Virus record (IMG/VR): IMGVR_UViG_3300037557_000128
Coordinates: 15,349 to 79,348 of that record
Reading direction: 5' to 3' (one strand)
Source: a virus
Length of the DNA stretch: 64,000 nucleotides
Shown: positions 14,239 to 48,664 of the stretch, piece after piece
How positions within the stretch are numbered: the first letter of the stretch is position 1
Layout: each line of letters begins with the position of its first letter
Made by a program: the position numbers and the translations under genes
The notes under the pieces: generated by a model
What the model saw: only the letters and a program-made list of their open reading frames with translations
Databases searched by the model: none
Told to the model about the DNA's origin: nothing

Positions 14239-15647
14239 TTTAGTTCGAATTGCTTAATTTCATATGTAAAACCTTCTTCGTTGTATATATTTATACGGTC
14301 TTTACAGTGGTTGAGAGTATAATTCTTACCCCCTATGTCATCAGCAATATCGAACAGTCTCATACTGTCTTTATCTTTCCCCTTTCTAAGTCCTCTACCA
14401 ATAGATTGTAGATTTCTTATTCTAGATTTGGAAGGAGATGCGAAAATAATGTTATCTATTTTCTTAATGTTTACTCCTGTAGAAAAAGTTCCGTATGACG
14501 CTAGTATGACATTATCATTACTCTTTTCTACAATTGTTCTTACATCTTCTCTGTCGGTCACATCAGTACCACCGAAAACGTAGTGTAGTTTGTCTCCTAG
14601 TCTTTTAAACATTTTACCATGCAATACTTCACCATGTTTCTGAACATACTGGAATAGTACAAGTGTGTTTCCTTTTAGACTATACACTAGGTTACATATA
14701 AACTCATTTCTTGCTTCATTACCTACAAGGTAATCCATTTCCTCTTGGTAAGTAGGTAGTTTAATTTTGGGGTGTTTAAGTATTACTATGTCGATATTCA
14801 AGTTTGCAATGGTTCCCTCTTCCATTAACTCTGCAGTTGTGGTAACTTTCTTAACTGGGCCAAACAATCCTTCTAATTGTAATCTATGAACCTCTGTTCC
14901 GTCCAGTGTACCAGTCGTTCCAAATCGCAATGCAGTGTTCTTCATTTTTTCTAGAATACCTTTCAATACATTTGCTTTAAATAAATGTGCTTCATCACCC
15001 ACAACCATGTCGAATGACTCTAATGTTTTCTTAGGTGCTTTTGCAAATGACTGCCATGTTGTAATTGTAATGGGTGCATCGAATACTGGTTGACCATGAT
15101 AGATTTTACAGATAGGTTCTTTGTATCCATAGTCCACAAAATCTTTACTCAACTGTTCTACCAGTGAAGTTGTCGGAACAATGATTACAGTTTTTTTGTT
15201 GTAGTATCTTGCGAGTAGGTATATGATTAATGATTTGCCACTTGCAGTTGGTGAGAGTAATAGTTGTCTCCCATATTGAATCGCAGTATTAAATGCATCT
15301 ATCTGATATTCTCTAGGTTCAAAGGGAAGGTTCAAATCTGCCAACCATGATTGACTGACCTTCTCTCTTTGTTTAGTTCCAAGAATATCTTCGACACCCT
15401 CAAATTCATAACCCCTCTCCCTGCAGAACTCGTCAACATATGGAAGTAATCCAATATAGATTTTGTGTGTTTTAATAGAGAATAGGTATACCTTACCGTC
15501 CCACATTCTATTCTTATAGGAAGGCATAAATTTTGCGTTGGGTACTTTAAAGGAAAAAAACTCAAACAGTTCTTTTGCGAGTCCATCGTCACAATCAACT
15601 TTAAGAAATACTTCGTTTACCTTAGAAACCTTAACAACATCAGACAT
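14235..15647 (-). CDS. uvsW: SF2 DNA helicase UvsW
   Basis: PTASGKS, DEAH, TTGT, QSIGRGLR. Confidence 0.95.
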   Translation of the reverse strand: MSDVVKVSKVNEVFLKVDCDDGLAKELFEFFSFKVPNAKFMPSYKNRMWDGKVYLFSIKTHKIYIGLLPYVDEFCRERGYEFEGVEDILGTKQREKVSQSWLADLNLPFEPREYQIDAFNTAIQYGRQLLLSPTASGKSLIIYLLARYYNKKTVIIVPTTSLVEQLSKDFVDYGYKEPICKIYHGQPVFDAPITITTWQSFAKAPKKTLESFDMVVGDEAHLFKANVLKGILEKMKNTALRFGTTGTLDGTEVHRLQLEGLFGPVKKVTTTAELMEEGTIANLNIDIVILKHPKIKLPTYQEEMDYLVGNEARNEFICNLVYSLKGNTLVLFQYVQKHGEVLHGKMFKRLGDKLHYVFGGTDVTDREDVRTIVEKSNDNVILASYGTFSTGVNIKKIDNIIFASPSKSRIRNLQSIGRGLRKGKDKDSMRLFDIADDIGGKNYTLNHCKDRINIYNEEGFTYEIKQFELK

Positions 15648-32538: not shown

Positions 32539-33805
32539 TTGGGTCTCTGTTGAACTTCCATACAGTTGTTTCTTCAACTTCTTTTAGAAATTCTATTGGA
32601 ATATTGTGGTCTGATATAACCGTTCCTCTATCACTGATGTTTCCTACACCATACTCACTAATATAATATTTGTTGTCTTTTATAGACAAATTATTAGGAT
32701 AAGCAACATTATACTTATCATGCAGATATATAGGGTACTCATTTTTATCACTATCACTTGTAATTAAATACTTTCTACAATCTTTGTTTTCCCAAGCCTT
32801 TTCAAACAGTGATACATCTTCAAACATACCTTTTAGATATTCATCACCAGTCATAAATGTAGGTGTACTATTAAATATATCAGGTCTTACATTCAGTTCT
32901 AAGAAATACCATTCTCCTTTAGAAGTGTAGGCACCACAAAAACTTCCTTCCCAACTTCCACCCATTTTAGCGATATGTTCTAAATATTTTTCAGACTCTT
33001 TTCTGACTATCTTATCTACGGAAGGACTTAATGGTTTCACATATGTGTCGAAATACCATACTTGTGGGATTACACCTTTATTCAACCCCTCACCTATTAT
33101 CTCTTGGGTATGAGTTATAGAATATTCTCCATTTGAAACTACAAAGAATACATTTGTTTCTATCATATCATGCAAATATTCTTCTATGAAATAATCTGCA
33201 TTTATACATCTCGGCCATTCAGGGTTGGTATTCAAATCTTTAAGGGGTTTTATGTCTTCCTCACTATTAATCACTATTGCAGGATACCAAATATGAGAGG
33301 CTTTCTCTACACATGGAAAGGAAAGTCCCTCACAATAATCTTCATCTAAATATTTTCCGTGTTTAACAATATTAGGAACCCTTACCCCAAGTTGCTTAGC
33401 TGTATCTTTTGCAAATAACTTGTCTGTTTCTAGACGACCTGATTTTTCTGTTGGGCCTATGTACTTAACTTTATCTTTAAAATAGGTATGTAAAAAAGAT
33501 ATATCAGGAATACAGACTTGAAGAATATCAATGTTGTACTTATCAATAAGTCCTTCTATAAATGCACATGATTCTATCTTTCTTTTTTCACTTATTTGAA
33601 TGGGTATATCTTCCACTCTTTCTGGCGAATACTTACCAAGACCAGTTACCCTACGATTTTCTTCTTCAGTTAAAGGGGTTATACCAAGAGAAGATTCGTA
33701 TTCATTTACATACGTCCAATTACTGTAAACTGTATGGCCAGAATTTACTAATTCTATCAAAGTATGAAAATGACAACGAGGAAGATTTAAATTTAGTATA
33801 TTCAC
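32528..33805 (-). CDS. Divergent ATP-grasp ligase (PurD-related fold)
   Basis: IGP...LETDKLFAKD, PCVEKA, FIEEYL, FLELNVR; GTG start coupled to upstream TGA. Confidence 0.75.
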   Translation of the reverse strand: MNILNLNLPRCHFHTLIELVNSGHTVYSNWTYVNEYESSLGITPLTEEENRRVTGLGKYSPERVEDIPIQISEKRKIESCAFIEGLIDKYNIDILQVCIPDISFLHTYFKDKVKYIGPTEKSGRLETDKLFAKDTAKQLGVRVPNIVKHGKYLDEDYCEGLSFPCVEKASHIWYPAIVINSEEDIKPLKDLNTNPEWPRCINADYFIEEYLHDMIETNVFFVVSNGEYSITHTQEIIGEGLNKGVIPQVWYFDTYVKPLSPSVDKIVRKESEKYLEHIAKMGGSWEGSFCGAYTSKGEWYFLELNVRPDIFNSTPTFMTGDEYLKGMFEDVSLFEKAWENKDCRKYLITSDSDKNEYPIYLHDKYNVAYPNNLSIKDNKYYISEYGVGNISDRGTVISDHNIPIEFLKEVEETTVWKFNRDPNGS

Positions 33806-34713
33806 TCTTGTCCGTCCCAATTTAAATCCGTTCTTTTTAGTTGTTCTTCTTTAAAGTCTTTCTTCATTTCACCAGTATTAGGGTCAAAAGGACATTCTGT
33901 TAAATCTTCTTTGAAATCCTTATGTTTTGGTTCCCAAACTTTCCCTCTTTTATAAGGGCCTGCCATATGAGTGGATTCATCTCCAAAACCTATCCTAGAT
34001 AACTCAGTCACCGTCATACGTTTATCAGGGTGTTCTGTAGTGTATTTTGATTGATTAGTTACATAAGACTCATGGTCTTTAACAGTATATGTCGCAACCC
34101 ATTCTTCTCTTTTGTATGGAATGATTTGACAAATAGGTGTACCCTTTGTTATAACAAATGAATGGTCTACTTTGGGGTATAGAATAATTTGTGAATTGTC
34201 TTTATTTGTATTAAACTTATCAGTATCAATAATACCTTGCCATGTCGCAAAGTAATCATTCTGAAATAAGAAAGGGTCTAAGTAGAAACAAGAATAGCCT
34301 GGTGGTGTAGTTATACACCATGCATTAGACATTTTGAATGCATCTTTGACTGGTGCATCCATAGTAGACATATAGTTAAATGCATCATGCATTTGTATAC
34401 TAGGGTGTGTTGCAGATGAATATTTCTCCATTTCAACATGGACTGTATCTTCAGTGTGATAAGATTTAGAATCAGAATCTTCATTTGTTACACCGTTTCT
34501 TATTAATATATCTCTATTTGCAAGAATAAGATACCCTGAAGATAACCAATCTTGCATTGCAGGACAAGACCTTATAGTCTTATTAACTACACCGTTTACA
34601 ACTTCTGCGACCTTTCCTTTTTTCCACCAATCAGGTGTAACAGACTTTGCAAGAACTGGTTTAAAATTCTTTAAAGTTTCTTTATCGTATGTATGAAAGT
34701 CTATCATCGGCAT
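33802..34713 (-). CDS. DUF6065-like protein (possible dUTPase-like fold)
   Basis: TIRSCPAMQDWLSSGY...TPPGYS...GIIDTD...ITKGTPICQIIPYKRE. Confidence 0.6.
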   Translation of the reverse strand: MPMIDFHTYDKETLKNFKPVLAKSVTPDWWKKGKVAEVVNGVVNKTIRSCPAMQDWLSSGYLILANRDILIRNGVTNEDSDSKSYHTEDTVHVEMEKYSSATHPSIQMHDAFNYMSTMDAPVKDAFKMSNAWCITTPPGYSCFYLDPFLFQNDYFATWQGIIDTDKFNTNKDNSQIILYPKVDHSFVITKGTPICQIIPYKREEWVATYTVKDHESYVTNQSKYTTEHPDKRMTVTELSRIGFGDESTHMAGPYKRGKVWEPKHKDFKEDLTECPFDPNTGEMKKDFKEEQLKRTDLNWDGQE

Positions 34714-35392
34714 GATAATTTTCCCCCTCTTCTTCTAATCTGACCTCGTCTCCACGAACCACTAATGAACGTCTATCCATGTACCTCGAACTTGGGTCGG
34801 GTGCATCTGCACCATGTGGTATTCTTCCGTCAAACATAATAAGTCTATTTGGTTTAAAATCAATCTCACCTATTTGGTGATTCTTAATATGTTCATCTCT
34901 ACCGTCTAAACCCTGTTGAGGTTTATCATATAATCTTAATGTTCCACCCCACGCAGGATTCCAATATCTATTTGGGTAATATAGAAATGAAAGATTCCAA
35001 CTGTCTTCTTCTGCACAATCTTGATGTGTAGTTCCCTGTAATCCTTGAGTCTGACTATTTAGGCCTGCGTATTGAAACCTTACCCATTTAAAACCAAACT
35101 CAGTTTGAAGTCTTCTATCTAAGTAATTTGTAAACCAAGTGTCTTCGATTCTGACATCTTTATCGATTTTATGAAAGTTTCTAAAAAATGTTGCACCCCA
35201 AAAACTATGGTGTGGTAAACCAGTTGAAGAACCACTACTGACTTGATTTGTCTTACTCCATATGTTATCAAGAGAGATTCTTTCATCATAATGATGATGT
35301 AATGGTTGAGCCAACCAATCATCTAATACATAAACTTTTGTTAAGGGTAAAGTCTGTATTTTGAAAGGTTCATCTAAATGAACAATCTCCAT
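34682..35392 (-). CDS. 2OG-Fe(II) oxygenase (prolyl-hydroxylase-like)
   Basis: THQD...WGGTLRLY...PNRLIMFDGRIPHGA...RRSLV. Confidence 0.85.
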   Translation of the reverse strand: MEIVHLDEPFKIQTLPLTKVYVLDDWLAQPLHHHYDERISLDNIWSKTNQVSSGSSTGLPHHSFWGATFFRNFHKIDKDVRIEDTWFTNYLDRRLQTEFGFKWVRFQYAGLNSQTQGLQGTTHQDCAEEDSWNLSFLYYPNRYWNPAWGGTLRLYDKPQQGLDGRDEHIKNHQIGEIDFKPNRLIMFDGRIPHGADAPDPSSRYMDRRSLVVRGDEVRLEEEGENYHADDRLSYIR

Positions 35393-35393
35393 A

Positions 35394-35963
35394 CTAACTC
35401 TGTTGGTGGTCTGGCAGTTTAGTTGGTGCTGGTATATGCATTGAATACTCGTCCAATTCCTTTAAAGTATCTTCACGAGTTGCTTTAATTTCTGCACATA
35501 TTTGGTCTAATACACTGTATAGTGCATCACCATATTCCATAACCCTTCTTGCATTAGACCTAAATGGGTGGTTAGAACCCTCTCTACCTGCAAAAGTAAC
35601 CTCACCTAAATCACTAAAACCATGCATATCAATAGTTTCTTTTAGATAATCTCCAACCTGTTCATTTAACCTTGACATAAGTTGATTGTTTAAATTAGTT
35701 CCCAAAGGTGGTTCTGAATTTGCAATATACTGTTCAACCATTTCTTTTTCTGCATCAGATAGGTCTAGTTTTTCTTGCATATCAAAATTTTGTTCTCTGT
35801 CCCACTTCATGATTTTGATTTCTATATCATCATACACCAACATATCATATTCAAACCCTAATTCAGGTTTGTCGACATTTTGAAATTCGTATTCCAATCC
35901 GTTAGGTTTTCTGACAAAGAGGTTGCTATCTTCCGTGAATATTAAAGCGTTTTTTACATTCAT
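35394..35963 (-). CDS. Hypothetical protein, possibly tail-fibre assembly chaperone-like
   Basis: C-terminal HGFSDLGEVTF...PFRSNARRVMEYGDALY loosely resembles phage fibre-assembly proteins. Confidence 0.45.
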   Translation of the reverse strand: MNVKNALIFTEDSNLFVRKPNGLEYEFQNVDKPELGFEYDMLVYDDIEIKIMKWDREQNFDMQEKLDLSDAEKEMVEQYIANSEPPLGTNLNNQLMSRLNEQVGDYLKETIDMHGFSDLGEVTFAGREGSNHPFRSNARRVMEYGDALYSVLDQICAEIKATREDTLKELDEYSMHIPAPTKLPDHQQS

Positions 35964-35997
35964 AATAATTTTCCTATAATCTCTCTATTATACCATA

Positions 35998-37518
35998 TTA
36001 TTGCGTGGAGTCATAGAGGTTTTTGTACTTGTTGTATACTTCAAGATTATTTATAGAGTCAAAATTCATATCATTTATCCAAGGCCCGCCCCTAGTGTAA
36101 TGAATCCCAGTGTAATCCCACTTCTCTTCAGGGTTGTCATAACCTTCGACAAATATATATTTTTGAGGTATTTCAGATATTGCATTAGTCCATTCGAACT
36201 GATGTAGTTGTTTTCCTGTCCAAGTGTTCACAACTTCAGGTGTTAACTTCTTACAGTCCTCATGACTGTTGTTGAAAAACATCATTGAAGACCACAATTT
36301 ACATGGATAATCTATGTTTACTTCTCCATTGAACTTAGACTCGTCATGTTTATATTGTGGGTATTTGATACACGCAACTGCATCATCAGGATTTAGATAA
36401 TAGAACATAGGTAGTAATGACTTCTTAAATATAAAATCGTTATCCACAAATAGACTAAACCCTTCATAGTTCTCTAAGTGTGGTATAAGAAATCTACTGT
36501 ATGTAAATTCAGTACTTTGATTTGCGTACTCCCTATTATAATCGGGAAGTTTAGAAATGTCAAGCAATTTAATGGTTGGACTAAATCTAGTGTACTCTTG
36601 AAACTCACCCAGTGAATGTGCATCTGAGATTGTTTGTGTGATTGACTTTTCACACACTTTCTCTAAATCATTCATTGTACTATCATAACCGATATAAACG
36701 GTTAGTGGTTTACCTGCAGAAAGTTTATGAACCTTTTTATTAAACTTAAAGACATCATCTCTAAATCCAAGTTCTGCTAAATCTGTTTGCCATTCTATCA
36801 CACCCCGACATAGTTGGAATGCAATATTTTTATGTCTTCCTCTTTTGTCTAGTTTATCGCCCCAATACTCTAATACTTCATCAAGTGTTGTACTTGGAAA
36901 ATCTGAGAGTTGTCCAGTCTTATCCCATATCATACACTCCATATCGTCATTTTCCATTTCTTCAAATACGCAAGAACGAACAGAGCCTGGGTGGATTGTT
37001 AATTGAATTAGGTCATCAACTGGATTTGTTGTATAACCTTGAATTGGTGCCCAAAGTCCTTCTTCTTGAATACTTTGAGTTAACCAGTGTGCTTTTGCAC
37101 TATGGTAATAACAAGAACCTACTACTTCTTTTACTCTTGGGTCTTCTTTATGAGACGGTCTAACATTTACAACAGTATCTAAAATGTTAACTTCTTCATC
37201 TTCTTTTTGGAATCCGAATCCTGCGTGATTTCCCACCATGTTTAAACTAGAATAACCATGAGGAAGATACCTATGATAATAATTAGACTTATCTAATAGA
37301 CCATTAAAACTCATGAATCTTTTTTCTTTTCTTAATTGAAGTGTATCACCCCATTTAAAGATTTTAAGTGGTGGAAGAATTTCTTCAAACAACCACTGTA
37401 TGATTTTATATGATTCTTTATCTGTTTCACCAATATTAAGGGAACCTAAATGTAAGGCGTCCATAGTTTCTTTGGTGATAAGAGATTGAGCTTGCTCTAG
37501 TGTAGTAATTTTTTCCAT
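35998..37518 (-). CDS. Fusion of ParB/Srx-like domain and GT-A glycosyltransferase (GT8/CDI-like)
   Basis: C-half VYIGYDS, STEFTYSRFLIP, FVDND (DxD), WSSMMFFN, HYTRGGPW; N-half SIQEEGLWAPI...HPGSVR. Confidence 0.8.
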   Translation of the reverse strand: MEKITTLEQAQSLITKETMDALHLGSLNIGETDKESYKIIQWLFEEILPPLKIFKWGDTLQLRKEKRFMSFNGLLDKSNYYHRYLPHGYSSLNMVGNHAGFGFQKEDEEVNILDTVVNVRPSHKEDPRVKEVVGSCYYHSAKAHWLTQSIQEEGLWAPIQGYTTNPVDDLIQLTIHPGSVRSCVFEEMENDDMECMIWDKTGQLSDFPSTTLDEVLEYWGDKLDKRGRHKNIAFQLCRGVIEWQTDLAELGFRDDVFKFNKKVHKLSAGKPLTVYIGYDSTMNDLEKVCEKSITQTISDAHSLGEFQEYTRFSPTIKLLDISKLPDYNREYANQSTEFTYSRFLIPHLENYEGFSLFVDNDFIFKKSLLPMFYYLNPDDAVACIKYPQYKHDESKFNGEVNIDYPCKLWSSMMFFNNSHEDCKKLTPEVVNTWTGKQLHQFEWTNAISEIPQKYIFVEGYDNPEEKWDYTGIHYTRGGPWINDMNFDSINNLEVYNKYKNLYDSTQ

Positions 37519-37551: not shown

Positions 37552-38412
37552 TTAACTTGTAACTGGTGTAGCAGGCCATTGTTGAGATAGTGTACTATCC
37601 CACCTAATGACTGGTGTTCTACCTTGTCGGGCATAAGTTCCAGGCGTCCTATGTTGATATGTGAACGGTGTCTGACCTTGTCTTGCATATGTGCCAGGCG
37701 TTCTATGTTGATAAGTCGTTGGTGTTTGACCTTGTCTAGCATATGTACTTGGTGTTCTATGTTGATAGGTAAATGGTGTTTGACCTTGTCTCGCATATGT
37801 GCCAGGCGTTCTATGTTGATATGTAGTAGGTGTTTGACCTTGTCTAGCATATGTGCCAGGCTGTCTGTTTTGATATGTAGTAGGTGTCTGACCTTGTCTA
37901 GCATACGTTCCTGGCTGCCTATTACTATATGTAAATGGAGTCTGTCCTTGTCTCGCATATGTTGTAGGTTGACTAGCAATATATGGATATGGATTTTGTC
38001 TATTCGCAATATAAGGTTGTTGTCCAGCTACAGGATTCCTATAGGTAAATGGACTCCTATTATTATATGTGAACGGACTCTGACTATTACTAGGTTGTCT
38101 TGCGTTCGCAGGATACCTTGCGTTATATGTGAATGGACTCTGACTATTACTAGGAGACTGTCCATTAGCAGGATACCTTGCGTTATATGTGAACGGTTGT
38201 CTCGCATTACTAGGAGACTGAGCATTCGCAGGATACCTTGCGTTATAGGTATACGGAGTCCTTGCGTTATAGGTAAATGGACTCTGACTATTACTAGGAG
38301 ACTGTCCATTAGCAGGATACCTTGCGTTATAAGTTCCAGGCTGCCTAGCTGAAGCAATGGCAGGTTGCTGGGTATTAGCGATTACTGGTTGTTGTGCTTG
38401 TCCGATTGCCAT
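37552..38412 (-). CDS. Pro/Tyr/Gln/Arg-rich repeat protein 'B' (partner of 38412-39863)
   Basis: 286 aa, almost all repeats; no K, E or C and one D; coupled to upstream stop. Confidence 0.85.
   Translation of the reverse strand: MAIGQAQQPVIANTQQPAIASARQPGTYNARYPANGQSPSNSQSPFTYNARTPYTYNARYPANAQSPSNARQPFTYNARYPANGQSPSNSQSPFTYNARYPANARQPSNSQSPFTYNNRSPFTYRNPVAGQQPYIANRQNPYPYIASQPTTYARQGQTPFTYSNRQPGTYARQGQTPTTYQNRQPGTYARQGQTPTTYQHRTPGTYARQGQTPFTYQHRTPSTYARQGQTPTTYQHRTPGTYARQGQTPFTYQHRTPGTYARQGRTPVIRWDSTLSQQWPATPVTS
37612..37968 (-). repeat. 54-bp coding tandem repeats (PGTYARQGQTPxTYQHRT, about 6.5 copies)
   Basis: Recurrent gcatatgtgccaggcgttctatgttgat / gtttgaccttgtc. Confidence 0.9.
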
Positions 38413-39863
38413 TATCTTTTATTCCCCCCGCCGTTATGAACTAACACACCTTCTGTAAAGTATGTTTTAGTGTGTTCAACGGAAGTTAAATGATAGACTG
38501 TAGCAGTTCCATTTTCTGTTATGGAGTTAACTGTTACCCCTGATTGACCAACTGTAAAGACTTCGTCTCCTACTGCGAGTTCTCCACTTAGTTCTATTCC
38601 CCAATCAACGTCTTTTAACTCAATATCACACTCTTCCTGATTCGCATATTTCCAACCTGAATCAGTGTGTATTGGGTGTCCACCTGTTACACCTAGTGTT
38701 TTTCCATTTGATAATTCTACGTTCCAAACTTTTATGTTTTCTCTTGGAACCATGACCTCAGTAACATTCTGAGGCATAAGTTTACCATGACTAAAGTCAA
38801 ATGTCATTACTGCATCTCCAACATTAACGTTTTCTATGTTCATATGATTGTTATCAGCCATCAAAATTTGTGTTCCAGCAATGAAACACCCACCACCACC
38901 GCCACCATACGGATAAGTGTATGGATTACGATATGCATACGAAACTGGTGTCCTCTGTTGAAAGGTAAATGGATTCTGACTGTTTGCTATATAAGGAACT
39001 CTGTATGTAAATGGGTTTCTATATGTTCCAGGCTGTCTTGCATTAGCAATGTATGGTTGTCTTGCGTTTGCGATATAAGGAACCCTGTATGTAAATGGGT
39101 TTCTATATGTGAATGGATTTCTTGCATTAGCAATATAAGGAACCCTATATGTAAATGGGTTTCTGTATGTTCCAGGCTGTCTTGCGTTTGCGATATAAGG
39201 AACTCTGTATGTAAATGGGTGTCTGTATGTTCCAGGCTGTCTTGCGTTTGCGATATAAGGTTGCTGTGCGCTTACAGGACTTCTATAGGTAAATGGATTC
39301 CTGTTTTGATATGTACTAGGTGTCTGACCTTGTCTTGCATATGTTGTAGGTTGACTAGCAATATACGGATAAGGTTGTTGTGCATTAGCAATATATGGTG
39401 TTTGATTGCTCGCAATATACGGATAAGGATTTTGTCTATTCGCAATATATGGAGTCTGATTACTTGCTATATACGGGTAAGGGTTTTGTCTATTCGCAAT
39501 ACTTGGGGTCTGATTGCTTGCTATATACGGGTAAGGTTGTTGAGCGTTCGCAATACTTGGAGCTTGAGCATTTGCTATATAAGGGTACGGATTTTGTCTA
39601 TTCGCAATACTTGGGGTCTGACTATTAGCAATGTATGGATAAGGTTGTTGTGCGTTCGCAATACTTGGAGTCTGACTATTAGCAATGTATGGATAAGGTT
39701 GTTGAACTGAAGTCTGACCCGAAGCGTTATTCCAAGTGGAAGGCCCAGTCTTTACATAAACCTGTTCTGCAGCTTTCCAAGTCGTTCCACCCGTCTTTAC
39801 CCACGCACCTTGTGTGGCATTCCAACCTGTAGGTGTTTTGACGTGTTGTTTTCCTGTTGCCAT
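38412..39863 (-). CDS. Repeat protein 'A' with N-terminal VKTxxxW domain and C-terminal Hint domain
   Basis: WVKTGGTTWK/VYVKTGPSTW; repeats aa 56-318; G6 linker; CFIAGTQI...VLVHN. Confidence 0.88.
   Translation of the reverse strand: MATGKQHVKTPTGWNATQGAWVKTGGTTWKAAEQVYVKTGPSTWNNASGQTSVQQPYPYIANSQTPSIANAQQPYPYIANSQTPSIANRQNPYPYIANAQAPSIANAQQPYPYIASNQTPSIANRQNPYPYIASNQTPYIANRQNPYPYIASNQTPYIANAQQPYPYIASQPTTYARQGQTPSTYQNRNPFTYRSPVSAQQPYIANARQPGTYRHPFTYRVPYIANARQPGTYRNPFTYRVPYIANARNPFTYRNPFTYRVPYIANARQPYIANARQPGTYRNPFTYRVPYIANSQNPFTFQQRTPVSYAYRNPYTYPYGGGGGGCFIAGTQILMADNNHMNIENVNVGDAVMTFDFSHGKLMPQNVTEVMVPRENIKVWNVELSNGKTLGVTGGHPIHTDSGWKYANQEECDIELKDVDWGIELSGELAVGDEVFTVGQSGVTVNSITENGTATVYHLTSVEHTKTYFTEGVLVHNGGGNKR
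38433..38888 (-). other. Hint (intein-like) autoprocessing domain, no homing endonuclease
   Basis: Cys1 block CFIAGTQILMAD...IENVNVGD, TGGHPI (TxxH), VYHLT...YFTEGVLVHN. Confidence 0.85.
39375..39698 (-). repeat. 54-bp coding tandem repeats (PYPYIANSQTPSIANAQQ, 6 copies)
   Basis: Recurrent ttcgcaatacttgg..tctga / ggataaggttgttg. Confidence 0.9.
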
Positions 39864-39916
39864 CTATACTGCCTTATAAGTTTTTAAATTATTAATATGG
39901 TATTTATACCCCACTA

Positions 39917-47195: not shown

Positions 47196-47912
47196 TTATG
47201 TTTGATACTGTGCCGAAGGAACAGATTGGTGAATTTGTTTTACAGTAGGTGTTCCATCGTTCACATAAACTTTATCCAACTTCCTTAAAGTTCCACCATC
47301 ATTCACGAATACCCCTTTAACTTTTGCAAGAGGCCCAATAGTTCTAGTTGTTGGATAAGTTACCTGATATGCATACGGTTGTTGGAATGTGTACTGTGTC
47401 GTATAGGGAACCTGATAAATGTTTGGTTGTCTTGCTTGTGCGATATAAGGTTGTTGTCCACTTACAGGACTTCTATAAGTTGCAGGCTGTCTGTTTTGAT
47501 ATGTAAACGGAGTCTGACTATTTACAGGACTTCTATAAGTTCCAGGCTGTCTTGACTGATATGTTCCAGGCTGTCTTGCCTGTGCAATATATGGATACGT
47601 TACTTGCCCTTGTCTAGAATATGTAAATGGTAATCGTCCCTGTCTTACATATATGCCTGGCTGTCTCGCTTGACCAATAGACGGTTGTTGTCCAGCTACA
47701 GGACTTCTATAAGTTCCAGGCTGCCTTGCTTGTGCGATATAAGGTGTCTGACTATTTACAGGACTTCTATAAGTTCCAGGCTGTCTCGCATTACCAATAG
47801 ACGGTTGTTGACCACTTACAGGGTTTCTGTAAGTGTTAGGTTGTCTCGCATTACCAATAGAAGGTTGCTGTCCAATTGCAGGGTATGGATATGGTTGTTG
47901 TCCTATAGGCAT
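47196..47912 (-). CDS. Repeat protein 'D' with C-terminal VxVND domain (partner of 48666-49628)
   Basis: Repeats aa 7-187; C-terminus KVKGVFVNDGGTLRKLDKVYVNDG; own late promoter at 47958-47965. Confidence 0.85.
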   Translation of the reverse strand: MPIGQQPYPYPAIGQQPSIGNARQPNTYRNPVSGQQPSIGNARQPGTYRSPVNSQTPYIAQARQPGTYRSPVAGQQPSIGQARQPGIYVRQGRLPFTYSRQGQVTYPYIAQARQPGTYQSRQPGTYRSPVNSQTPFTYQNRQPATYRSPVSGQQPYIAQARQPNIYQVPYTTQYTFQQPYAYQVTYPTTRTIGPLAKVKGVFVNDGGTLRKLDKVYVNDGTPTVKQIHQSVPSAQYQT

Positions 47913-48664
47913 TACGCTACCCCCAAATAGTCTACTTGTTTTGCTTGTTTGACTTCATATTTATAGTTATTACTCCAATTATTTGGGTGCGACTCTTTTA
48001 AACTCTTAATATGATTTTTCGGGAATACATAACATACGTCCATGTTCCAAGCTATAATACTTTTACGTTCATTCGTTTCCATTTTAGGGGCACGGTGTAA
48101 TAACCAAGAAGGGAATATAAGCATATCTCCTTCCTCAGCTTTAGGTTGTATAATTTCTTGCGTTTCAGGATTCAAAAATTCTGTAATATACTTTTGATTT
48201 GGTACTTCTATAAAATATACTGCTGACCATTGACACCATTGATGATTATCCCAACTGATATAATCTGATTGAAACATTTGGTGATACCACATATGCATAA
48301 TATTAAATTTATATTCTAAACCAGTAATTTCTGGCTGTATATGAAACCTTGCGTGGTCATGAAATTTATTCTCTACAGCATCTAAGAACATTTTCTTATA
48401 TTCTATATGAGGATACCCCTTTACATTCATATCCCATTCATCAATATCTCCACTACCACCAGTATAATCATTAATTGAGTCTTGGTATTGCCAACCTGTT
48501 GGTAAGATAGGGGAAGAAGGGTGGTTATGCCCATCAAATTTAGTAATTCCTAAATTATAATCTTGATTACCAATTTGAGTAGGTAAAGCGTCAAAGAAAT
48601 CTAAAAGACTCTTATTAAGTTCTTTATGATTATCAATCGTATATTTGTATATTAAATTATTCAT
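47912..48664 (-). CDS. Putative 2OG-Fe(II) oxygenase (TIGR02466-like)
   Basis: MWYHQM...WDNH...WSAVYFI...EEGDMLIFPSWLLHRAP...RKSIIAWN. Confidence 0.8.
   Translation of the reverse strand: MNNLIYKYTIDNHKELNKSLLDFFDALPTQIGNQDYNLGITKFDGHNHPSSPILPTGWQYQDSINDYTGGSGDIDEWDMNVKGYPHIEYKKMFLDAVENKFHDHARFHIQPEITGLEYKFNIMHMWYHQMFQSDYISWDNHQWCQWSAVYFIEVPNQKYITEFLNPETQEIIQPKAEEGDMLIFPSWLLHRAPKMETNERKSIIAWNMDVCYVFPKNHIKSLKESHPNNWSNNYKYEVKQAKQVDYLGVA

Follow-up and report, generated by a model that had tools for sequence, protein, structure and literature searches.

IMG/VR virus record IMGVR_UViG_3300037557_000128, which comes from an uncultured marine T4-like phage, contains a 64,000-nucleotide stretch (positions 15,349 to 79,348 of the record; hereafter the window, whose numbering is used throughout) in which two adjacent genes, here termed A and B, encode proteins with proline-punctuated repeat tracts that mirror each other in reverse order. 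All genes around A and B lie on the minus strand, within a block of fibre-like genes, and the two genes overlap by one base at position 38412, where TAATG combines the TAA stop codon of A with the ATG of B. The layout of both proteins is given in Table 1. Proline makes up 13–16% of the A and B tracts and is never contiguous, and all of its spacings are even (2, 6, 8 or 10 residues). Neither tract contains any Asp, Glu, Lys, Leu, Met, Trp or Cys; some homologues instead have Asp- or Glu-containing units (PNIRDAQE, TYDHRS). Two kinds of segment follow the prolines. Those that we call big, of the types P-F-T-Y-(Q/N)-x-R-x, P-F-T-Y-R-(N/V) and P-G-T-Y-A-R-Q-G-Q-T, have Phe or Tyr at the first and third positions after proline (Pro+1 and Pro+3), and those that we call small, of the types P-Y-I-A-N-A-(Q/R)-Q and P-V-N-A-Q-Q and also PANGQS, have Ala, Gly or Ser at the positions of the big residues.

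The sequence-only reading, a model's account of this DNA made from its letters and open reading frames, had cut both proteins at every proline and reported that the spacings of A, read backwards, reproduce those of B. Both strings proved exact: from P56 to P314, A reads forward (2,8,8)x6, 2,6,10, 8,6,6,8,6,6,8,6,6,8,6,6,8,8,6,6,8,8,8, and from P9 to P267, B reads 8,8,8,6,6,8,8,6,6,8,6,6,8,6,6,8,6,6,8, 2,6,10, (8,10)x6. Over the 19 irregular segments A reversed equals B forward, the other blocks sum to 18 each, and both spans come to 258 residues. The reported complementarity of residues was likewise found, with Tyr or Phe at Pro+3 of one chain and Ala, Gly or Ser in the other in all 19 segment pairs (overlay checked by eye), and with the six small 18-mers of A sitting opposite the six big 18-mers of B on the proline map and overlay. 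For the central block, described as 10,6,2 against 2,6,10, one detail needs correcting. Both proteins contain a single motif there, PYPYIASQPTTYARQGQTP, which runs N-to-C alike in each, with A 164-182 and B 141-159 identical at 19/19 residues. Because of this common orientation the motif faces itself in the mirror overlay, forming a local dyad or two-fold point, and we call it the dyad motif. Among the 43 codons around it, A and B have 23 identical codons, 10 synonymous differences and 10 non-synonymous ones.

When A and B are overlaid once in mirror orientation, without gaps, 33 of the 35 prolines in the B tract coincide with prolines of A, compared with 19 in the forward (parallel) overlay. 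Shuffled segment orders match worse, as the mirror claim would require: 20,000 shuffles of the segments of B gave a mean of 16.5 and a maximum of 25 coincident prolines, and 20,000 shuffles of its whole repeat units gave a mean of 18.8 and a maximum of 32, so that 33 was never attained. The optimum of size complementarity lies 2 residues off the Pro-on-Pro overlay, and the opposition of Pro+3 to Pro+3 is therefore a segment label and not necessarily a contact.

In IMG/VR, 160 loci matched A or B as queries, 70 of which have an A-like gene followed by a B-like gene, yielding 49 non-redundant pairs from marine viromes. The N-terminal domain of A was matched by tblastn in 70/70 of these loci, and most of its columns are invariant in 16 homologues. 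Across the 49 pairs B ranges from 206 to 559 residues, and the spacing strings are highly diverse, with runs of 866, 88, 864, 6666 and 882 against 8X in various orders. The partners do not vary independently, in keeping with the pairing proposed earlier: each A reversed reproduces its own B forward. With one ungapped overlay per pair, a mean of 89% of B prolines coincide in the mirror orientation, compared with 58% in the forward orientation and 53% for non-cognate combinations of A with B. The cognate A was the unique best partner in 34/49 pairs, the remaining ties being near-duplicates, and the repeat spans of A and B (144-545 residues) are correlated (r = 0.92), with a median difference of 9 residues. 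Paired changes can be followed between individual loci: L047 has gained one 18-mer in both chains relative to L050, an 18-mer was swapped for a 20-mer at mirrored places between L027 and L036, and an insertion that distinguishes L016 from L035 reads 882882 in A and X8X8 in B.

Counts over the 1,378 exactly mirrored segments, 782 of which have 8 residues, brought out a big-against-small rule with both polarities in both chains, as would be expected of the pairing code that had been proposed. Among 8-residue segments, 289 were big:small, 480 small:big, 13 small:small and 0 big:big. The corresponding counts for 6-residue segments were 193, 288, 13 and 79, and the 79 big:big pairs were all of the Gly-containing PxGY type. 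Such co-variation by swaps between the two polarities is, by analogy, a protein counterpart of compensatory base-pair changes. At the -2 register, aromatic residues face small ones 2,981 times (906 expected) and other aromatics 5 times (375 expected), and the mutual information is 1.55 bits. None of the parallel registers or non-cognate mirror overlays exceeded 0.5 bits or was free of aromatic clashes. By coincident prolines and by mutual information alike, the parallel register thus fares far worse, as the sequence-only reading had anticipated.

A second gene pair in the window, C and D (Table 1), follows the same design. The C–D mirror overlay gives 22 coincident prolines, compared with 14-15 for the non-cognate combinations A–D and B–C, and the phage thus carries two orthogonal pairs, A/B and C/D. 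Several homologous C/D pairs also mirror, with 39/44 and 32/40 prolines coinciding. A Pfam match of C to 'Cementoin' (25.5 bits, under the cut-off) was rejected as a low-complexity artefact. At least 18 natural single-chain fusions were confirmed among metagenomic proteins (e.g. P0024, P0011, P0030 and P0076), each resembling C at its N-terminus and D at its C-terminus, with self-mirrored arms on either side of a non-repeat middle domain of ~110 residues, which is presumably the distal tip. These fusions share the -2 register optimum with the A/B pairs. Since self-mirrored arms within one chain fit only a hairpin, the arms would run antiparallel, and a parallel arrangement is incompatible with them. 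A profile search with the fusion family against 1.84 billion representatives returned 191 clusters at E <=0.001, few of them full length.

Table 1. Features of the A/B and C/D loci, with positions in the window
Feature	Position	Strand	Remarks
Gene A, 483 residues	38412..39863	-	N-terminal domain, repeat tract, poly-Gly, Hint domain, short tail; from open reading frame and proline map
A 1-55, conserved N-terminal domain (WN.TQG.WVKT..., VYVKT motifs)	39699..39863	-	Proposed proximal end
A 56-163, six 18-residue small units, PY-PYIANSQT-PSIANAQQ type	39375..39698	-	Opposite the six big 18-mers of B
A 164-182, dyad motif PYPYIASQPTTYARQGQTP	39318..39374	-	Same as B 141-159
A 183-318, 19 irregular 8/6-residue segments (PYIANARQ, PGTYRN, PFTYRV types)	38910..39317	-	Variable; proposed distal half
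A 320-325, GGGGGG	38889..38906	-	Directly before the Hint cysteine
A 326-477, Hint (bacterial intein-like) domain	38433..38888	-	Pfam Vint and conserved catalytic residues
Gene B, 286 residues	37552..38412	-	Nearly all repeat tract (P9-P267), plus conserved tail
B 9-140, 19 irregular 8/6-residue segments (PFTYNARY, PANGQS, PSNSQS types)	37993..38388	-	Mirror of A 182-314
B 141-159, dyad motif	37936..37992	-	Same as A 164-182
B 160-267, six 18-residue big units, PGTYARQGQT-PTTYQHRT type	37612..37935	-	Most conserved part of B
B 268-286, conserved tail, V-I-R-W-D ... Q-Q-W-P-A-T-P-V-T-S	37555..37611	-	Trp-containing, about 20 residues
Gene C, 320 residues	48666..49628	-	First chain of pair 2; C-terminal non-repeat domain of ~120 residues
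Gene D, 238 residues	47196..47912	-	Second chain of pair 2; C-terminal VFVNDG/VYVNDG domain
2OG-Fe(II) oxygenase between C and D	47912-48664	-	PF13759, phrog_81
Upstream fibre gene, 652 residues	39917..41875	-	PHROG tail-fibre families; immediately precedes A in 70/70 loci
T4-type late promoter motif TATAAATA	39901..39908	-	Consensus match only; 38 nucleotides upstream of the start of A
Downstream cassette	33802..37518	-	Pfam/PHROG matches; fixed order right after B in 68-69/70 loci

Taking these data together, we consider it likely that A and B form the two strands of one fibre shaft, antiparallel and in register, held by beta-type pairing. Judged from sequence, a heteroduplex of A with B, as proposed at the outset, is the best-supported account, and it is from the mirrored patterns that we infer physical binding, a beta conformation and a fibre role. 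On this model, the antiparallel association of A with B would extend over ~258 residues, their backbones pairing in beta fashion along a single unbroken edge, and proline would cut each chain into segments of even length (2, 4, 6, 8 or 10 residues). Even lengths imply that all prolines would lie on the same strand edge, the one unused for pairing, and on that free edge they would also prevent sideways, amyloid-like growth; even spacings likewise place the aromatics, which stand at odd offsets, on one face of an alternating beta strand. A big segment would have to face a small segment of equal length, and the irregular order of lengths and types would act as a bar code that fixes a single register and partner.

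In the mirror overlay the conserved ends of A and B face each other, with the tail of B adjoining the N-terminal domain of A, and the opposite end is variable in length and pattern. The conserved end is probably proximal (virion-side) and the variable end the distal tip. At the proximal end, the N-terminal domain and first 18-mers of A would stand beside the last 18-mers and Trp tail of B and dock on the virion, and the distal tip would consist of the variable C-terminus of A and the N-terminus of B, where relatives would have a tail of oligo-Gly, a Hint domain that removes itself or a ~170-residue globular domain. We favour a ribbon of two strands, extended or twisted and possibly bundled, because this geometry tolerates arbitrary irregular segment orders provided that the partner mirrors them; it would be ~85 nm long if straight, and the 85-90 nm given in the sequence-only reading likewise presupposes a straight ribbon of two strands. 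We also lean, by a narrower degree of conviction, towards a more general reading in which A and B would exemplify a programmable polypeptide pairing code, a beta-strand analogue of base pairing, whose bar code sets one antiparallel register and allows a single virion to assemble the orthogonal zippers A/B and C/D next to each other.

Several observations weigh against a two-chain antiparallel shaft. The net charges of the two tracts are +21 and +25, from Arg alone, so that two bare chains would repel each other unless modified or bound by counter-charges. Both faces of the strands are conserved, with Ile or Thr at Pro+2, Asn or Gln at Pro+4 and Arg or Gln at Pro+6, which exceeds the needs of a free two-stranded ribbon and hints at a higher-order assembly. 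Along with the positive charge, this conservation on two faces points either to packing of a higher order or to chains modified by the GT-like/oxygenase cassette. Between L018 and L016, A is longer by one 20-residue unit with B lengths equal, an uncompensated change; the extra unit of L018, lying in a uniform array, would merely overhang distally, the overhang being tolerated or the variant recent. Many homologous pairs of the C/D type mirror only when gaps are allowed, and a low-confidence ESM Atlas model of B alone (predicted local distance difference test score, pLDDT, 0.55) resembles a beta-solenoid. Structure prediction of the complex (A 1-325 with B 1-285, alignments of 16 rows) gave a score of 0.00 with the partner's own fold uncertain, a result that counts neither for binding nor against it. 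AlphaFold2 of the fusion P0024, also with a 16-row alignment, reached a mean pLDDT of 32, too low for the model to be usable, and its only long strands were 13-36 and 418-441; the ends of these strands sum to the value of the -2 mirror register, to which we give no weight.

The main rival is a coiled arrangement, an antiparallel two-start beta-solenoid built of alternating A and B rungs, with one 18- or 20-residue unit per rung and prolines at the corners, to form a short rod of ~13 nm. The dominant 18- and 20-residue periods are typical rung lengths, the conservation of both strand faces suits it, a mirrored rung order would likewise be needed, and DUF4097 beta-strand-repeat proteins align with the ESM Atlas model of B at a template-modelling score of 0.63 by query. 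However, the homologues include orders without a constant rung (ten 8-mers running, 864864, 6666 and single extra 8s) that are still mirrored exactly, which is natural in a linear zipper and awkward in stacked rungs; a constant rung length as in DUF4097-like adhesin repeats was not found, the segment orders of the homologues being irregular. By a rough estimate, moreover, a 20-residue triangular rung with all odd positions inward needs ~1,170-1,400 cubic angstrom and offers ~950, Pfam gave no match to DUF4097 or any other solenoid family, and AlphaFold2 predicted no secondary structure or strands for B alone (pLDDT 38). We therefore regard the two-start solenoid as unlikely.

Fainter still is the prospect that A and B make no contact and are independent fibres or decorated flexible adhesins, oppositely oriented along a common third component. 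The composition of the tracts, rich in Pro, Tyr, Arg, Gln and Asn, does recall adhesive and wall proteins, a cassette with a GT-like protein and a 2OG oxygenase follows B in 68-69/70 loci, and no fold is predicted for either chain alone, but such an arrangement would leave unexplained both the two-polarity size complementarity at the level of residues, with big:big excluded, and the single-chain fusions with mirrored arms, and no third protein of matching pattern was seen among the conserved neighbours. We hold it to be very improbable that the mirror is a by-product of periodic repeats, concerted evolution, or a DNA inversion or sense-antisense origin of the genes. A periodic array such as (8,6,6)n does read alike when reversed, and both genes contain long open antisense frames. 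Against this, shuffles that preserve the repeat units never attain the observed match, and the irregularities are themselves mirrored, in 49 different patterns. The genes are not reverse complements at the DNA level, as the sequence-only reading had noted: the sole inverted match in 2.3 kb is a chance-level stretch of 22 nucleotides at 77%. Since a Pro codon, CCN, becomes NGG in the reverse complement, and no NGG codon stands for Pro, inversion cannot set Pro opposite Pro, and an origin as a sense-antisense ('complementary') peptide pair or by DNA inversion was rejected.

The antiparallel shaft has its nearest structural idea in the needle of the T4 fibre protein gp37 and its nearest concept in the code of coiled-coil zippers, and A and B are members of neither family. 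The gp37 needle has six strands, which extend to the tip and return (PMC7291167). It is likewise a fibre shaft with antiparallel outward and return strands, an out-and-back topology that the C–D fusions share. T4 gp37 is one chain that forms a homotrimer, stabilized by iron bound at His motifs. In A and B, by contrast, separate genes encode the outward and the return strand, and a single chain, as in the gp37 hairpin, occurs only in the C–D fusions; prolines at intervals of even length punctuate the two strands, and the big/small code matches them; the tracts contain no HxH, with His once in A 56-318 and four times in B 9-267; and no sequence or profile similarity to gp37 was found with Pfam or with the B-family profile against PDB. 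Heterodimeric coiled-coil zippers likewise achieve full-length recognition between two chains by a periodic complementarity code, and the paralogous pairs A/B and C/D recall their orthogonality. Coiled coils, however, are alpha-helical with a heptad period, whereas the period in A and B is 2, as in beta strands, and proline every 2-10 residues excludes helices. A collagen or polyproline-II (extensin-like) rod was also rejected, as there is no period of 3 and there are no Pro runs, all spacings being even.

The local rules that A and B would use have precedents. Cross-strand aromatic-glycine pairs ('aromatic rescue of glycine') were reportedly described by Merkel and Regan in 1998, and Richardson and Richardson are said to have identified proline as negative design on beta-sheet edges in 2002. 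Both rules run throughout A and B, with Tyr or Phe opposite Gly, Ala or Ser and proline on one edge; in globular sheets and designed hairpins they are local, whereas in A and B the code spans hundreds of residues between two proteins. The repeat tracts had no match in Pfam, PHROGs or a PDB profile search, and the profile of the B family found nothing in PDB to E 1. With the full proteins, Pfam gave no family for B and only Hint families for A. In a collection of 5.8 billion proteins the homologues numbered 266 and 388 matches, all unnamed or 'hypothetical', and no description of mirrored repeat pairs was found in full-text literature searches or in the pelagimyophage genome paper (PMC7029224).

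If the antiparallel zipper is correct, nature would have supplied a rule for designing heteromeric beta structures that are long and specific in register, of a kind available to protein designers for helices (coiled coils) and scarcely so for beta strands. The zipper would also account for the way in which an abundant group of uncultured marine T4-like phages makes fibres whose length can be tuned, from about 140 to 545 residues per strand among the relatives sampled; length and specificity could then evolve through paired gain and loss of repeats in two genes. For annotation, the design offers a handle on several hundred metagenomic protein clusters labelled 'hypothetical' that share it.

The Hint domain of A (152 residues; Pfam Vint, 30.3 bits against a cut-off of 27) carries C326, T393-x-x-H396 and H476-N477, followed by G478 in place of a +1 nucleophile and by the C-terminal tail GGGNKR. 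Four of these residues, C326, H396, H476 and N477, do not vary among 16 homologues, and conservation of T393 reaches at least 90%. At +1, the Hint-bearing homologues listed all have G, M, F, A, R or L and never Cys, Ser or Thr, which rules out a canonical splicing intein, and the chemistry would be bacterial intein-like. With bacterial intein-like (BIL)/Hint domains, A 326-477 shares the N-terminal Cys, the TxxH block and the C-terminal His-Asn; it differs in sitting within the oligo-Gly tail of a fibre protein, without a +1 Cys, Ser or Thr. Only 21/70 loci have the Hint domain, and an oligo-Gly flank occurs in nearly all homologues, Hint present or not. The C-terminus of A takes three forms: an oligo-Gly stretch plus a tail of 8-12 residues; this oligo-Gly tail with an inserted Hint domain; and a non-Hint domain of ~170 residues, followed by one or two open reading frames before B. 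The Hint-less tails resemble the product expected from Hint self-excision. The domain could serve the self-removal, assembly or ligation of A; more speculatively, a Hint thioester at the distal Gly tail might join A covalently to another chain. At L016, L024, L027 and L040, which have the third form, the one or two open reading frames between A and B are acidic (about 85-100 residues), and such small proteins might be fibre assembly factors.

The record that contains the window is 79 kb long, with a CheckV completeness estimate of 44%. The fibre-like gene block holding A and B adjoins a gene for a VrlC-like baseplate protein of 2,226 residues, whose best cultured relatives, 36% identical to it, come from Methylophilales phage Melnitz and Pelagibacter phage Mosig. 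In marine T4-like phages, the genes lying from VrlC to the neck genes have been termed the host recognition cluster (PMC7029224), to which the A/B region corresponds. Searches of 50,697 phage records at the DNA and protein levels found no cultured relatives of A, or of A plus B, a result in which low-complexity masking probably hides the repeats. Upstream of A, the predicted late promoter motif TATAAATA, together with the TAATG overlap, would provide signals for late co-transcription of the two genes. The downstream cassette encodes, in order after B, a protein of 506 residues, a protein of unknown function of 189 residues, a 2OG-Fe(II) oxygenase of 236 residues and another unknown protein of 303 residues. 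The C-terminal half of the 506-residue protein is GT8-like, and among cultured phages this protein has partial, distant matches only. The cassette, tied to A and B by position alone, may decorate the fibre.

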